From a virus: a DNA stretch of 64,000 bases. Position 1 is the stretch's first letter, and the number at the start of each line of letters is the position of its first letter. Of this stretch, positions 8,613 through 24,413 are shown in pieces. The stretch lies in IMG/VR virus record IMGVR_UViG_3300021399_000006, positions 14,128 to 78,127 of that record; one strand, written 5' to 3'. The notes beneath the pieces were generated by a model that had not been told where the DNA came from, ran no database searches, and was given only the letters and a program-made list of their open reading frames with translations. A program made the position numbers and the translations under genes.

Positions 8613-8930
8613 TATTATATCATAATATTTTAATAAAGTCAAGTGCGGTCTCGGCGGCAAGGCCATATGCCTCGGTCTGAACCTAAGGGCCCTATGATGC
8701 GAGAAGCAGGTGAGACTGCACATAGGTCCATCTCCGCCTGACGGATTCACATAGGTGAATTCAGTTATGTGGATAGGTTCACCTTTGTGGATTGTGCAAA
8801 ATGCACAAAAATTTCGGGAATTTTGGCGAAAAATTTGTGCAATTTTTTTTGAAAAAAATATTGACATTGAGAGAATTTTGTGGTATAATCGGCGCGAACC
8901 ATGGTTCGCGCCCCGATGGTTTTAGATATG

Positions 8931-8960
8931 GATATAAAAAAACAGGCGTTACCGCCTGTT
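8931..8960 (-). terminator. Rho-independent terminator (AACAGGCG-UUAC-CGCCUGUU + U6 on minus)
   Basis: Hairpin plus A6 on plus, which is U6 on minus. Confidence 0.5.
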
Positions 8961-9099
8961 TAAATCTATTAAAGAAAAATCAAAACCCATAATGAAAGCA
9001 AGAATTGCATCTGCTATAAGAATGAGAGGCCAAAGGGGTGTAGGTTCACGAAAGTAGAAGGTAGAGACCGCACATAAAACAAAGAACCATACAACGCAT

Positions 9100-9282
9100 T
9101 TAATCATAGAAAGAAACATCTTCAATTCTCCATGCAAAAGGTTGGCGATAATAATCAAGAGTAATTGCATCACAATAGCTCCCAAAAGGACACTCATCAC
9201 ATTTGTTTATATCTTTATAGGCTTTTTTACAACCTTTTTTAATGAGTTTCATTCCTTCAATAATTTCATTTTTCCAATTCAT
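9100..9282 (-). CDS. small Cys-rich protein (CDECPFGSYC)
   Basis: Track ORF of 60 aa. RBS AGGAGAAG. Confidence 0.5.
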   Translation of the reverse strand: MNWKNEIIEGMKLIKKGCKKAYKDINKCDECPFGSYCDAITLDYYRQPFAWRIEDVSFYD

Positions 9283-9283
9283 T

Positions 9284-9472
9284 TTATTCTTCTCCTATCT
9301 CAATACGATAACAAATATCACTAATAATATTATGAAGATTAAAATTAAAAGTATCTTCAATATCTTCTAAATCAAATTCATCTTTATAACAATGAATAAG
9401 ATTTTTAAAGGCTTCACCATATCTTTCCGCCAGTTCAGGAAAAAGAGTTTTTGAAATATCTGAATTAATCAT
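9284..9472 (-). CDS. hypothetical small acidic protein
   Basis: Track ORF of 62 aa. Confidence 0.45.
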   Translation of the reverse strand: MINSDISKTLFPELAERYGEAFKNLIHCYKDEFDLEDIEDTFNFNLHNIISDICYRIEIGEE

Positions 9473-9717
9473 CTGCTTTTCTCCCTTGCAATATCGCTAA
9501 ATTTGTACCACACGCCTTCATCATTTTCATCTCCCCAAGTATGAGTTCCTTCCCAATAGTCATAAAGTTCATCATAAGGAATAAACTTTTGTGCAAACAT
9601 GATAACACCAAAAGCCTGAGCACGACAATTCTTAACCATGTCAGCAGAAGAACATTCTTTTGCATCAGCAAGTCTTTTTTCAACAAATTCTTTAACATCA
9701 TCCATTGTGATAGTCAT
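9469..9717 (-). CDS. hypothetical protein
   Basis: Track ORF of 82 aa. RBS AAGGAAA. Confidence 0.55.
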   Translation of the reverse strand: MTITMDDVKEFVEKRLADAKECSSADMVKNCRAQAFGVIMFAQKFIPYDELYDYWEGTHTWGDENDEGVWYKFSDIAREKSR

Positions 9718-9897
9718 AGCTTATTTCCTTTCTGTTGCTTTCCTCTTGACAATTATTATTATATCAGATTATCGGGAAAATACAATATGTAATGTTGCAC
9801 AAAAATGTAGATGAAATTTTGGTAAGGTTGACTATTGACATATTTTGGGCGCTGTCTCAATGGACAGCGCCCCGGGCTTCCGCCTGGGACGACTGTT

Positions 9898-10116
9898 TTA
9901 ATATTCAAGAGCTGATAACCAATTATAGTTATTAATATAAATATCTTTCCAGAATACTCTTTTTACTTTATGTTCAGAACAATTTAACGTTTTAGCAACA
10001 TTCCAGAAAACAATGTCTCCATCTAACCACCAGTCAAAATATTCTTGTTTCATAATAAAAAGAAAAAGTAATGCTTTGATTTGTTTATCTCGTTCAATCT
10101 TTTTCTGTCGAGTCAT
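9898..10116 (-). CDS. hypothetical protein
   Basis: Track ORF of 72 aa. Confidence 0.45.
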   Translation of the reverse strand: MTRQKKIERDKQIKALLFLFIMKQEYFDWWLDGDIVFWNVAKTLNCSEHKVKRVFWKDIYINNYNWLSALEY

Positions 10117-10119
10117 AAG

Positions 10120-10380
10120 TTAATCCTCAAGCAATCTTTCTGCTACACGTCTCCTCACAAATTTTATTGTATTATCAATCTCTTTTTCATTATAATAAAA
10201 GAAATCGTCAGCCTCATCGAGTCCATCAAAACAATCGCAGATAGCACTGTTGCAATCTTCTGTAATAACTCCAAGAACTTCATCAACGATTTCATTAATG
10301 TCAATATTAACATTAATAGAACTAATTACAAATGCCATTTTATACCTCCTTAAAACTCCTTGAAAACTTCCTTCTGACAA
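10120..10380 (-). CDS. hypothetical acidic protein
   Basis: Track ORF of 86 aa. Confidence 0.5.
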   Translation of the reverse strand: MSEGSFQGVLRRYKMAFVISSINVNIDINEIVDEVLGVITEDCNSAICDCFDGLDEADDFFYYNEKEIDNTIKFVRRRVAERLLED

Positions 10381-21700: not shown

Positions 21701-21757
21701 CCTTTGATGATTATATATTATCATATTTGTTGACTTTTGTCAACCCCTTTTTTTATT

Positions 21758-21919
21758 TTATTTTTCAAGCCATTTGTAAAAGTTCTTTTTCCAGTTCTCA
21801 ATGATTTTTACAGTGTAAAAATCATCTTTACAAATTTCTTCAACCCTTGCATCGTCCATGTGATAACCGTTCTGAATCATTTCGTTGAAGATTGCTTTCT
21901 TGATTTCGTAGTTTGTCAT
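21758..21919 (-). CDS. small protein (53 aa)
   Basis: Manual ORF, own promoter. Confidence 0.35.
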   Translation of the reverse strand: MTNYEIKKAIFNEMIQNGYHMDDARVEEICKDDFYTVKIIENWKKNFYKWLEK

Positions 21920-22012
21920 TTTGTACCACCTTTCTTTGATCGGTTTGTTTCATTTCTTGATTATATTATATCAAAGGGGTTGAGGTTTGTCAACCCCTTT
22001 TTTAAAATTTTT

Positions 22013-22168
22013 TTAATCCCAAAAACCAGACCAAACAGAAAACCCTTGTTCATTTACTATTACGTGATCGAAATAGCCATTATCATATTTTTCCATATAA
22101 TCCAGGCAGTCGGCATAAGACCCCTCAAAAACAATTAATTCATCTTCGTTGCGTTCAACTCGATACAT
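22013..22168 (-). CDS. small acidic protein (51 aa)
   Basis: Manual ORF. Confidence 0.35.
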   Translation of the reverse strand: MYRVERNEDELIVFEGSYADCLDYMEKYDNGYFDHVIVNEQGFSVWSGFWD

Positions 22169-22266
22169 TTTAAATCTCCTTTTCATTTGATTGGGTTTTG
22201 TTTTCCTTTAACTGTATTTATTATATCAAAGGACTTGGCTTTTGTCAAGCCCTTTTTTAAAATTTT

Positions 22267-22446
22267 TTAGCACTCCCACGGTCCATCAGGGAAAAATGTT
22301 ACACAATTAAGGTCGTCATCCCATCCGCAAGAAAGAACATAGTTCTGCCACTGTCCAGACATAGCATCAATTTCTTTTTCCATTTTATCCATCATGTCTG
22401 CATCAATAGTAACGACTGCATCTAAAAACCATACATAACCTTTCAT
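22267..22446 (-). CDS. small acidic protein (59 aa)
   Basis: Manual ORF. Confidence 0.35.
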   Translation of the reverse strand: MKGYVWFLDAVVTIDADMMDKMEKEIDAMSGQWQNYVLSCGWDDDLNCVTFFPDGPWEC

Positions 22447-23022
22447 TTTATACCACCTTTCTTTTGTGCTTTTGTTTTCCTTTGATGATTATATTATATC
22501 AAAGGGCTTGGCTTTTGTCAAGCCCTTTTTTGATTTTTTTAAAATCTTTCTTTTAAAGCAAAACCCTTTTCATTACGAATAGCAATGTAGTCATAAGGAA
22601 ATTTTTTACAGGCTTTTTCAAAAACTTTTTCCGCTTCTTTCATAGTTGCTACTTTAAAACCGTAACGGAGAAAACCTACTGTGATGTGGAACATTTTGTA
22701 CCCCTTTCTTTGGATCGATTATTGTTTTCCTTTGATGATATAAGTATATCACACTATAGAAAAAAGTCAATAGATTTTTAAATAAAATATTGTACAAAAA
22801 AAGGATTAAAATAAAATAAATAATTATGCACTTTTCCCTCTTGACAACTGGCTGTCACATGTGATATAATGTTTCGGCCTGCAGCGGCCGCTTCCGCAGG
22901 CTTTGGAAAGAATGTTAAATTATTAACAATCGATCTTCTTTTGTACGATCGATTGTTAATAATACGCTTTGTTATAATATAATAAAAGCCTTATTAGTTT
23001 TATACTAATAAGGCTTTTATTT

Positions 23023-23265
23023 TTATTTAACGTCAACACCTTGACTTTTCAAATATGCAATTCTTGAAGGAACATATTCGTTATATCTTTTTTCAAGCTG
23101 TTCTTTTGAGTATCTCATAACATAGCTTCTATCAGCTTCTTTGTAGATACCAAGTTCAACCATTCTGTTAACCATAGCTTTCTTTGTCATTTTAAACCCC
23201 TTTCTCGATCGGTTCTTTGCTTCATTTGATAAATCAATTATAACGCTAAAAGACATATCTGTCAA
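23023..23265 (-). CDS. hypothetical basic protein
   Basis: Track ORF of 80 aa. Confidence 0.45.
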   Translation of the reverse strand: MTDMSFSVIIDLSNEAKNRSRKGFKMTKKAMVNRMVELGIYKEADRSYVMRYSKEQLEKRYNEYVPSRIAYLKSQGVDVK

Positions 23266-23614
23266 TACTTTTTTTAATTTTCAGACTATTTTTTTAATTT
23301 TCAGATAACTTTAAAATCTTCGTTTTTAAAGGGTTTACTTTGATCTTTTAACGTGTTAAAGTGTGTTATTTTTTTAACAAACAATAGCATTTTAGGAATG
23401 AAAAAATTTTTTAAAATTTTTTCATTTTTCCTCTTGACAAACTGGTTCTATGTGTGGTATAATTGTTCGGCCTGCAACGGCCGCTGGTGCTGACTAACAC
23501 AATAGAGTTTGTTTGTTAATTAACAAACAAACTCTATTACTTTAACGTATTAAAGAACATTGTTAAAACCTTAACAATCAATCTACTATGTTAGATTGAT
23601 AATAGTTTAACAAT

Positions 23615-23690
23615 GATTATTATTATTATTATTATTATTATTATTATTATTATTATTATTATTATTATTATTATTATTATTATTAATCAA
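23615..23690. repeat. (TTA)n microsatellite, about 24 units
   Basis: Perfect trinucleotide run read directly. Confidence 0.9.
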
Positions 23691-24413
23691 TTGACTTAGT
23701 TTGATTATTTATCTTATTTTGATTAGTTTGACCTAACTCAGCAAAGCCACTTTTACACATTAGCGTACTAAAGTGTTATTTTTTTAACAAGTAAAAGACT
23801 AAATCTTTAAATTTTAAAATAAGTGTTAAAAATTTAACAAGCCCGCTAATGAGCAAAAGTAAGAGTTTAGTGTGTTAAAAACTTAACAAAGGCAAGACTG
23901 TATCACTTTACCATGTTAAAGTGTTAACGTGTTACTAATGAGCAAAAGTAAGAGTTTAGTATGTTAAAAATTTAACGCTTATCAGGAAAGGTGTGAGTTT
24001 AGTGTGTTAAAAATTTAACGCTTATCAGGAAAGGTCTGACTTTTATTGATTACAGATTTATGGATTCAGAAATCTGGATACGTGTTATTGCATTAAAATT
24101 CGGCGCGCATTGGCCTGCGCGCGCCGAGCAAAACTATTAAATACAAAAAAAGACCGCCCTAAATAAAATCATACGATTTTTTAGGGCGGTCCATTCTACG
24201 CAGCGTTTATATTTAGTTTTTTGTCTCTACACAGCATTCCCAAAACTTTTCTCTCGGTATTAACGGGGGGGGTGGGTTTTTGGGAAAAAATTTTTTTGAT
24301 TTTTAAAATTGATTATGGTCTCGCCATTCCCCGTACCAAAAGTTTTTAAGTTTTCAAACAACGTACCAAAAGTTTTTAAAAATCTAAATAACGGTTCCTC
24401 GCACCAAAAATTT

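Follow-up and report, generated by a model that had tools for sequence, protein, structure and literature searches.

Two kinds of described element come closest to the repeats analyzed here. The promoter-early stem-loop (PeSL) cassettes of T4-like phages are intergenic repeats of ~100 bp in which a GC-rich stem-loop accompanies a near-perfect sigma-70 promoter, and they border numerous small, early orphan genes in a plastic part of the genome marked by cassette insertions and deletions (Arbiol et al. 2010, PMC2839356; Comeau et al. 2014, PMC4122927). The 5′ stabilizers of E. coli ompA and papA, and of the B. subtilis aprE leader and ermC, are stem-loops in which a hairpin ~0–2 nt from the 5′ end blocks entry of RppH, RNase E and RNase J1 (reviewed in PMC3997798). 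Here we describe sixteen GC-rich palindromes in a 64,000-nt phage segment with a GC content of 32% (IMG/VR record IMGVR_UViG_3300021399_000006, positions 14,128 to 78,127; this whole stretch is hereafter the window, and positions are counted from its first letter). They share with PeSLs the repeat size, promoter type, stem-loop and genomic setting, and may share the association with cassette indels. They lie in an early-type block at 8.9–24.2 kb, in which small minus-strand genes, singly or in short operons, each have their own sigma-70/sigma-A-like promoter and terminator. Our favored reading, held with moderate confidence, is that the palindromes would encode the 5′-terminal protective hairpin of antisense and other small non-coding RNAs, made from a dedicated and probably regulated class of promoters.

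We searched for stems of at least 7 bp and at least 80% GC with loops of at most 18 nt. This returned 14 palindromes between positions 8500 and 24200, compared with a mean of 0.01 (maximum 1) in 100 dinucleotide-preserving shuffles; the 48 kb of the window outside this interval contain none. Each of the sixteen sites listed in the initial annotation, named here by a start position (spans are given in Table 1), does hold a hairpin-forming inverted repeat, though not always with the 8–13 bp stem claimed for it. Predicted RNA folding energies are −17 to −31 kcal/mol at 13 of the 16; the imperfect hairpin at 21279 folds at −20.9 kcal/mol, the weak one at 22876 at −14.2 kcal/mol, and the weakest, a 5-bp stem at 23468 that falls outside the claimed range, at −10.6 kcal/mol. 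That the stems differ completely in sequence was likewise overstated. All are CG/GC-rich, those at 10873 and 11858 are one base apart, 15063 resembles 16053, and 22876 and 23468 have CGGCCTGCA in common. Only 8891 and 12822 are free of a central spacer; otherwise the spacers are mostly 9–13 nt long, asymmetric and strand-biased. An Rfam scan passed only a tRNA-Lys at the gathering threshold and gave nothing credible up to E = 1.

At 12 of the 16 sites, the stem begins 1–9 nt (mostly 6–9 nt) 3′ of a plus-strand TTGACA-N17/18-TATAAT promoter, and the window coordinates agree with the spacing first reported for sites with an intact promoter. Nine of these promoters score 12/12, two score 11/12 and one (at 21279) scores 10/12, and all 12 carry a TG extension. 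A hairpin stands behind every plus-strand promoter in the early region that scores at least 10/12, whereas sense promoters lead instead into an AT-rich leader, a ribosome-binding site (RBS) and an ATG. At 9847, 10873 and 11858, the −10 box is missing and only a TTGACA-type −35 element is left beside a retained palindrome, as had been noted before; 24101 is a fourth site without a promoter.

The same arrangement is found in related phages. With the exonuclease-like open reading frame (ORF) at 14189–14956 as query, we recovered 12 IMG/VR loci, nine of which (L001–L008 and L010) share the layout. Across the window and nine related contigs, 57 palindromes lie 5–10 nt behind an antisense promoter scoring at least 11/12, against 6 behind a sense promoter. 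In a set of 117 unique IMG/VR elements behind perfect promoters, stems are mostly 8–9 bp (maximum 16 bp), loops have modal lengths of 9 and 11 nt, and the distance from the −10 box to the stem shows a sharp peak at 7–8 nt (68 of 117) beside a smaller mode at 2–4 nt. Because of this peak, the stem falls at the predicted start of transcription: with the start taken as 7 nt past the −10 box, the modal stem would begin ~0–2 nt from the 5′ end. The earlier suggestion that the palindrome would form the 5′ end of a plus-strand transcript is borne out by this spacing. The loops, moreover, are purine-rich on the promoter strand (40 versus 10, p = 2e-5; 55 versus 26 in a wider set, p = 0.0017), with the reservation that these counts come from paralogous units and are not fully independent. 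This skew is opposite to that expected of the strand antisense to coding sequence. The loop motifs AGGAACG, GAAGC and GNCCGTG reappear on differing stems.

The promoters themselves form a distinct class with its own extended upstream consensus. They follow TTGACA-N17/18-TRTGnTATAAT and then a conserved discriminator, approximately GGAAATTT, and 43% of hairpin-associated promoters have GTGCA upstream of the −35 element, compared with 5% of other perfect promoters at the same loci. Many palindromes of the relatives have a perfect promoter on each side, the two facing each other, in the order TATAAT-GGAAATT-[palindrome]-CC-ATTATA, with one promoter 7–8 nt from the palindrome and the other 2–4 nt from it. 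Neither the upstream consensus nor the face-to-face pairs had been recognized in the initial annotation. A reverse-oriented TTGACA with no −10 box is also common beside palindromes in the relatives, and such half-units could be the product of a deletion that spans from the A-run of TTGACAAAA to that of GGAAAATT. In the window, the upstream consensus corresponds to an inverted repeat, TGCACAAA(TTTCGGGA)-N24-TTTGTGCA, that lies between the divergent sense and antisense promoters. Relative to the antisense start, it is centered at about −49.5 and −81.5; relative to the divergent sense start, the calculated values are about −61.5 and −93.5. Given the conservation of this operator-like repeat, a phage regulator probably switches these promoters; it may act on the antisense promoter, on its divergent sense partner or on the two together.

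Further cases of promoters facing palindromes were noted. At the left edge of the block is a mirror-image case, where a minus-strand promoter (8642–8614, 11/12) faces directly into a hairpin at 8586–8604; T8 follows this hairpin on the plus strand, making it a terminator for plus-strand transcription. Even in the distant relative phAss-1 (L014, OQ749652; 50% GC; coordinates of that locus), face-to-face perfect promoters flank the GC palindrome CGGGCGCCTGCGCCCG at 5150–5290, and at 6830–6900 a promoter abuts the palindrome GCGCGCCGG...CCGGAGCGGCGCGC.

What lies beyond the palindrome bears on the fate of a plus-strand RNA. Where a second hairpin follows behind an A-run, it is the terminator of the convergent gene: at least five A precede it in 51 of 65 units and at least five T follow it in 3 of 65. 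A T-run that the antisense strand could use is present in only ~3–5 of the 65, with 12822 and 22876 as the exceptions in the window. Because the adjacent terminator is unidirectional, an antisense transcript would read into the neighboring early unit, a point that had previously gone unseen. The units at 12822 and 22876 have plus-strand terminators of their own and are predicted to yield discrete RNAs of ~60 nt and ~150 nt, respectively. No RBS or ORF was found behind the hairpin. The flanking pattern first described, TTTT(GG) before the palindrome and AGCAAAAAAA plus a terminator after it, applies to about 7–9 of the 16 sites (15063, 16053, 17407, 18158, 19038 and 21279, and more loosely 20096, 11858 and 24101) and fails at 8891, 9847, 10873, 12822, 13633, 22876 and 23468. 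The accompanying statement that no U-tract follows on either strand stands at 14 of 16 sites, so the palindromes are not ordinary terminators. It breaks down at 11858, a plausible minus-strand terminator since TTTTTTT comes directly after its stem, and 24101 is marginal.

We next consider whether pairing is conserved. We judged this at orthologous positions, as a covariation count on elements selected for being palindromes would be circular. The closest relative, L001, is ~75–83% identical in syntenic blocks, and every window palindrome position that can be aligned to it bears a palindrome there too; an absence at equivalent positions, which would have spoken against the elements, was not seen. 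Between the two genomes, compensatory changes convert T-A to A-T at 9847, C-G to G-C at 15063 and C-G to T-A at 20096, while 10873 shows two double changes and one A·C mismatch (G·U on the opposite strand). At five orthologous positions the palindrome has been replaced by an unrelated one of a different length class. Together, the compensatory double substitutions and the replacements indicate that pairing, rather than a fixed sequence, is under selection, as the initial annotation had argued. This extends to copies that have lost their promoter: because 9847 and 10873 are among the sites with compensatory changes, pairing is selected even where no promoter fires into the stem.

The unit is not confined to these few genomes. 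A scan of IMG/VR for eight G/C bases behind a perfect extended promoter matched at least 120 loci, at least 85 of which have a palindrome after the promoter. A similar scan over 185,579 species of bacteria and archaea, each represented by a single genome, gave 32 matches, all on contigs of gut or rumen metagenome-assembled genomes, mostly binned as Clostridia. The promoter–hairpin unit is therefore widespread, but solely in uncultured phage-like sequence.

The coupling of stem to transcription start, the strand-biased loops, the missing coding potential and the perfect promoters point to a role in RNA. In the reading that we favor, each palindrome would encode a very stable stem-loop right at the 5′ terminus of a non-coding RNA, which would start at a host sigma-A/sigma-70-type promoter aimed against the minus-strand early genes, just beyond the neighbor's terminator. 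Since the stem begins at about +1/+2, such an RNA would have almost no single-stranded 5′ tail. In Firmicutes, 5′-end-dependent decay by RppH, RNase J1 and RNase Y would be blocked by a stem placed there; BsRppH, for one, requires at least two unpaired 5′ nucleotides (PMC3997798). As this decay route needs an unpaired 5′ end, the RNA could be long-lived even though untranslated. The antisense transcript would then extend over the adjacent early unit, and transcriptional interference (by collision or promoter occlusion) or duplex-triggered decay could tune the early genes or shut them off. At 12822 and 22876, transcription would instead stop at the unit's own terminator and release a discrete small RNA.

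Several observations weigh against this proposal. The stems show no strand preference, with the plus strand more stable in 22 and the minus strand in 21; G·U pairs are few (13 on the plus strand and 21 on the minus strand), and the stems are otherwise perfect Watson–Crick helices whose stability is far above what 5′ protection needs. Alternating CG/GC steps are favored over GG/CC steps (745 versus 331), and alternating runs of at least six occur in 24.5% of stems against 9.8% expected; neither RNA helix stability nor stacking energies explain this excess. In one ortholog group (8891 in the window, 5865 in L001, 4398 in L003 and 7834 in L005), the palindrome lies only 0–4 nt past the −10 box, as it does for the second promoter of face-to-face pairs. 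At this distance, a start 7 nt downstream would land inside the 5′ arm. Finally, palindromes without a promoter are maintained, both in the window (9847, 10873, 11858 and 24101) and in L010, which has seven of them.

The maintenance of promoter-less copies, compensatory changes included, counts in favor of a different function, which we regard as possible though somewhat unlikely: the palindrome may be an orientation-independent boundary element between early units, with antisense RNA secondary. It could act as a decay barrier or 3′-end protection in sense read-through or polycistronic RNA, or as a back-up pause site or attenuator; polymerase parked on the convergent promoter, together with hard-to-melt GC DNA past the U-tract, could also reinforce termination. 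Perfect stems with no strand bias would suit such a role, as would the position of the palindrome 2–5 nt from the sense U-tract and the T7 run on the sense strand after 11858. The genes before 9847 and 10873 have no canonical terminator, which places these two palindromes within sense transcripts, and in reporter assays transcription was attenuated by PeSL stem-loops that have no obvious U-tract (PMC2839356). At most sites, however, an efficient-looking terminator precedes the palindrome, so that few sense transcripts should arrive, and a sense-strand U-tract after the hairpin is missing at 14 of 16. A boundary function also leaves unexplained the tight 7–8 nt link to the −10 box, the strand-biased purine-rich loops and the units that face no gene (12822 and 22876).

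Comparison with L001 raises the further idea that the unit is chiefly a recombination or mobility module, similar to PeSLs or to miniature inverted-repeat transposable elements (MITEs), with transcription incidental. Repeated ~100-bp units, some of them promoter–palindrome–promoter inverted repeats, would here allow small early-gene cassettes to be gained, lost and shuffled. One cassette that the window has in addition, at 12829–13591, carries promoter modules on both sides, and another insertion, at 9875–10343, begins 2 nt past palindrome 9847. Differing palindrome types at orthologous positions suggest gene conversion among units, face-to-face promoter pairs form long inverted repeats, −35-only half-units resemble deletion derivatives, and PeSLs provide a precedent. 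Yet any repeat can mediate such events, and the breakpoints examined number two. The 57-to-6 orientation bias, consensus promoters, fixed spacing and compensatory changes speak for selection on function rather than mere spread. We therefore think it unlikely that mobility is the main role, while a PeSL-like part in recombination is plausible as an additional property.

The excess of alternating CG/GC steps, the perfect Watson–Crick stems with no G·U bias and the AT-rich flanks would also suit palindromes that act as DNA, either by adopting a cruciform or Z-form structure or as the site of a structure-specific protein beside bound RNA polymerase. We consider this quite improbable. Long asymmetric central spacers are unfavorable for cruciform extrusion, and those found here are 9–13 nt long, asymmetric and strand-biased; the loops in the larger set (modes of 9 and 11 nt) are also long and non-palindromic, which disfavors the cruciform alternative raised in the initial annotation. 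The sites lie between convergent transcription units, where positive supercoiling accumulates, many stems have no (CG)3 run, and the stems are too variable for sequence-specific binding.

A protein family that co-occurs with the units is relevant to this question. Three paralogous early genes on the minus strand (11920–12321, 15319–15723 and 17488–17853), each with a 12/12 promoter, encode proteins of 121–134 aa with 57–66% identity. An AlphaFold model, built from an alignment of 3 sequences only (mean pLDDT 79.8), shows a winged helix preceded by a helical N-terminal part. The top Foldseek matches include Z-alpha domains (ADAR1 and PKZ), DsrD and poxvirus E3, but the E-values are weak (1e-3 to 1e-2) and comparable scores are reached by generic winged-helix regulators. 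In ADAR1 numbering, the Z-alpha signature consists of Lys169, Asn173 and Tyr177 in helix 3 and Pro192, Pro193 and Trp195 in the wing. By-eye alignment finds it mostly missing from the phage protein: helix 3 (QKMGALLGQLVK) contains neither Asn nor Tyr, and the wing has no Pro-Pro and carries Tyr114 where Z-alpha has Trp. Exact-word seeding of IMG/VR with the 134-aa paralog recovered no loci, but local tblastn placed the family, often in multiple copies, in 39 of 166 loci, most of which had been picked only by the promoter–GC pattern. A convergent promoter–hairpin lies within 400 nt of the 3′ end for 16 of 67 family copies (39 loci plus the window). Secondary minus-strand promoters with short purine-rich leaders (AAGGTAAGGGAAAG...) were also seen upstream of the paralogs' own promoters, at 12550–12578, ~15900–15940 and 18033–18061.

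We see the family as a candidate regulator, acting either on the hairpins or on the operator-like repeat. Combining these elements, one could imagine that Z-alpha-like winged-helix proteins read the hairpins by shape, as RNA or as alternating-CG DNA or RNA flipping to a left-handed form, and that together with the operator repeat and the antisense promoters they make up a genome-wide switch that locks or releases polymerase and times early shut-off. We view this as a long shot; if true, RNA polymerase would be held or freed at every early unit.

That the palindromes are plain extended or tandem intrinsic terminators is very improbable: GC hairpins adjoin terminators, and a minus-strand T-run is present at 11858 and weakly at 24101, but a T-run follows the hairpin on neither strand at 14 of 16 sites, the hairpin stands at the transcript start on the promoter strand, and the same hairpins lie between face-to-face promoters in relatives. 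Six other candidates were rejected. Hairpin promoters of the phage N4 type do not match in stem and loop geometry, and the units have a host-type promoter; integron attC sites would have R/L core sites, which are missing; mimics of CRISPR repeats are not a match, as the stems are not one repeat sequence; rebuilding of a promoter by cruciform extrusion in −35-only units fails on spacing; transcription-driven genome entry is at odds with promoters aimed the wrong way relative to the early genes; and termination at the A-tract was considered and set aside.

Table 1. Palindromes, terminators, promoters and operator-like repeats of the early block (window coordinates; TG, TG extension).
Feature	Position	Strand	Remarks
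GC palindrome	8891..8912		11-bp arms, spacer 0; 1 nt past −10 box; −17.7 kcal/mol
GC palindrome	9847..9872		promoter-less: TTGACA 6 nt upstream, −10 box missing; compensatory change vs L001
GC palindrome	10872..10898		promoter-less (TTGACT only)
GC palindrome	11857..11883		promoter-less; T7 after stem on minus strand, terminator-like
GC palindrome	12822..12845		at +1 of 12784 promoter; plus-strand terminator 12842–12872 and T-run downstream
GC palindrome	13633..13669		stem 11 bp, loop 15 nt
GC palindrome	15062..15086		stem 8 bp
GC palindrome	16054..16076		stem 7 bp
GC palindrome	17405..17443		stem 12 bp, loop 15 nt
GC palindrome	18157..18195		stem 14 bp, loop 11 nt
GC palindrome	19038..19062		stem 8 bp
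GC palindrome	20096..20132		stem 12 bp, loop 13 nt
Imperfect GC hairpin	21280..21316		behind 10/12 promoter
Weak GC hairpin	22876..22902		at +1 of 22841 promoter; plus-strand terminator 22981–23021 downstream
Weak GC hairpin, 5-bp stem	23468..23483		at +1 of 23434 promoter
GC palindrome	24100..24127		no promoter
Intrinsic terminator, convergent early gene	8940..8961	-	
Intrinsic terminator after tRNA-Lys	15102..15123	-	palindrome 2–5 nt of spacer plus U-tract away
Intrinsic terminator, convergent early gene	16088..16111	-	
Intrinsic terminator, convergent early gene	17453..17476	-	
Intrinsic terminator, convergent early gene	18202..18227	-	
Intrinsic terminator, convergent early gene	19071..19108	-	
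Antisense-facing promoter	8861..8889	+	TTGACA-17-TATAAT, 12/12, TG
Antisense-facing promoter	12784..12813	+	12/12, TG
Antisense-facing promoter	13596..13624	+	11/12, TG
Antisense-facing promoter	15025..15054	+	12/12, TG
Antisense-facing promoter	16016..16044	+	12/12, TG
Antisense-facing promoter	17369..17398	+	12/12, TG
Antisense-facing promoter	18121..18149	+	11/12, TG
Antisense-facing promoter	19001..19030	+	12/12, TG
Antisense-facing promoter	20059..20088	+	12/12, TG
Antisense-facing promoter	21245..21273	+	10/12, TG
Promoter	22841..22870	+	12/12, TG
Promoter	23434..23463	+	12/12, TG
Operator-like inverted repeat	8802..8841		
Operator-like inverted repeat	14976..15015		TGCACAAA-N24-TTTGTGCA
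Operator-like inverted repeat	15967..16006		
Operator-like inverted repeat	18072..18111		
Operator-like inverted repeat	18952..18991		TATACAAA / TTTGTATA variant
Operator-like inverted repeat	21194..21233		
Operator-like repeat, shorter spacing	20011–20040		

The wider gene content indicates what kind of phage carries these units. From ~29 kb on, plus-strand ORFs of late-gene length need TAG as a sense codon. These TAG-dependent late genes (28972–62000, plus strand) include a sigma factor (28972–30084), a terminase-like protein, a portal protein, and ORFs of 2981 aa and 1558 aa. In the early region, the standard code suffices. The window holds no suppressor tRNA; its sole tRNA is tRNA-Lys(UUU), at 15159–15232 on the minus strand. 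No GenBank phage has nucleotide similarity to the window, and searches of the early proteins against Pfam and PHROGs were uninformative; a PDB sequence search came up empty. By protein similarity, the nearest named relatives are distant (39% identity for Enterococcus myoviruses and 29% for phAss-1). The closest cultured relative, through the exonuclease-like protein (39% identity), is Enterococcus phage EF1, in which the promoter–hairpin units are absent. The paper describing phAss-1, a member of the 'code 15 clade' with Clostridia as its predicted host, does not mention promoters or hairpins. The source is an uncultured gut or rumen phage from a clade of siphovirus-type phages of ~130 kb that read TAG as sense and probably infect Clostridia.

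The early block also contains other non-coding features. A GC-rich stretch at 18426–18650, 3′ of a 12/12 minus-strand promoter (18640–18612), is 96.7% identical in L001 and 88.7% identical in L002, with flanks at ~75%; it has no Rfam match and may be a structured leader or a non-coding RNA. Other GC-rich non-coding patches, some behind minus-strand promoters of their own, lie at 8620–8760, 12400–12700, 18650–18780, 19780–19960 and 21530–21700; these may be small RNAs, and they too are without an Rfam match. A direct repeat of ~35 bp, ggataccgctggttcgt.taggcggcagatacc, was found within 19800–19945. The gene-free region at 23270–24100 contains an (ATT)n microsatellite at ~23616–23686, many TTAACA/GTTAA motifs and the direct repeats ctaatgagcaaaagtaagagtttagt and gtgttaaaaatttaacgcttatcaggaaaggt, and we list with it two AT-rich perfect palindromes at 22920–22960 and 23505–23545. 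This region may be an origin or a protein-binding array.

The promoter–hairpin unit recurs across a whole phage clade; similarity and full-text literature searches, limited in extent, did not turn up a description of it. If our reading is correct, uncultured phages of gut and rumen that make up a large clade pair nearly every early unit with a dedicated, perfectly consensus antisense promoter, whose RNA would be armored by a GC hairpin at its 5′ end. A clade with no cultured member would then have antisense control of its early genes built in systematically, and possibly a means of shuffling cassettes, with the winged-helix family and the operator-like repeat as concrete candidates for its switch. 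The units would also offer compact natural parts, a perfect promoter joined to a 5′ stabilizer, for synthetic biology in Firmicutes.

The units differ in specific ways from each system that they resemble. Antisense and small RNAs from the terminal repeat are reported in the Kayvirus transcriptome paper, which describes nothing comparable to these units. Known 5′ stabilizers act on mRNAs, whereas the hairpins here belong to predicted untranslated antisense transcripts, form a family of 12–16 per genome, and have a much higher GC content and stability (−17 to −33 kcal/mol). Cis-antisense RNAs made from convergent promoters include the lambda oop RNA, the type I antitoxins SR4/bsrG and RatA/txpA, and RNA II of pAD1. 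With these, our units share the geometry of a strong, constitutive-looking promoter past the 3′ end of a small gene that would fire back across its terminator, with RNA duplexes overlapping at their 3′ ends as the predicted outcome; the known cases are single loci whose short RNA has its own terminator, whereas here nearly every early unit is involved and an antisense terminator is mostly missing. REP/BIME, Correia, BOX and MITE-type elements are multicopy GC-rich extragenic hairpins at gene ends, some of which carry promoters and affect mRNA stability. Within a genome they conserve the repeat sequence, but in our units only pairing, GC content and position are conserved, and we know of no link between these units and a RAYT or a transposase. 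The hairpin promoters of the phage N4 virion RNA polymerase have 5–7 bp stems, 3-nt loops and conserved bases, and they too are early-region DNA hairpins conserved in structure; there, the hairpin itself is the promoter for the phage polymerase, whereas here a full host-type promoter lies upstream and loops are 9–11 nt.

The comparison with PeSLs is the closest. A PeSL-like layout, a terminator hairpin with the −35 element in its loop, is found in the sense units at 20.4–22.6 kb (20372–20437, 20777–20812, 21486–21521, 21715–21744, 21965–21993, 22220–22251 and 22493–22528). In these, a hairpin such as GGGCTTGACAAAAGCCAAGCCC holds the −35 of a 12/12 promoter in its loop, and a T-run follows on the plus strand, making the hairpin a terminator for antisense transcription. 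In the antisense units, the features diverge. The PeSL promoter is in sense orientation, with a Shine–Dalgarno sequence and a start codon at the 3′ end of the cassette, whereas our promoters are predominantly antisense with no RBS or ORF behind them. The PeSL stem-loop lies over or between the −35 and −10 elements and ends transcription coming from upstream, whereas ours lies 5–10 nt 3′ of the −10 box, at the transcript start. Unlike PeSLs, our units have no U-tract after the stem-loop and do have a conserved upstream operator-like repeat, and they belong to Clostridia-type phages that read TAG as sense rather than to T4-like phages. Because the defining features of orientation and stem position are different, the units fall outside the PeSL class, though they may still work partly as PeSLs do.

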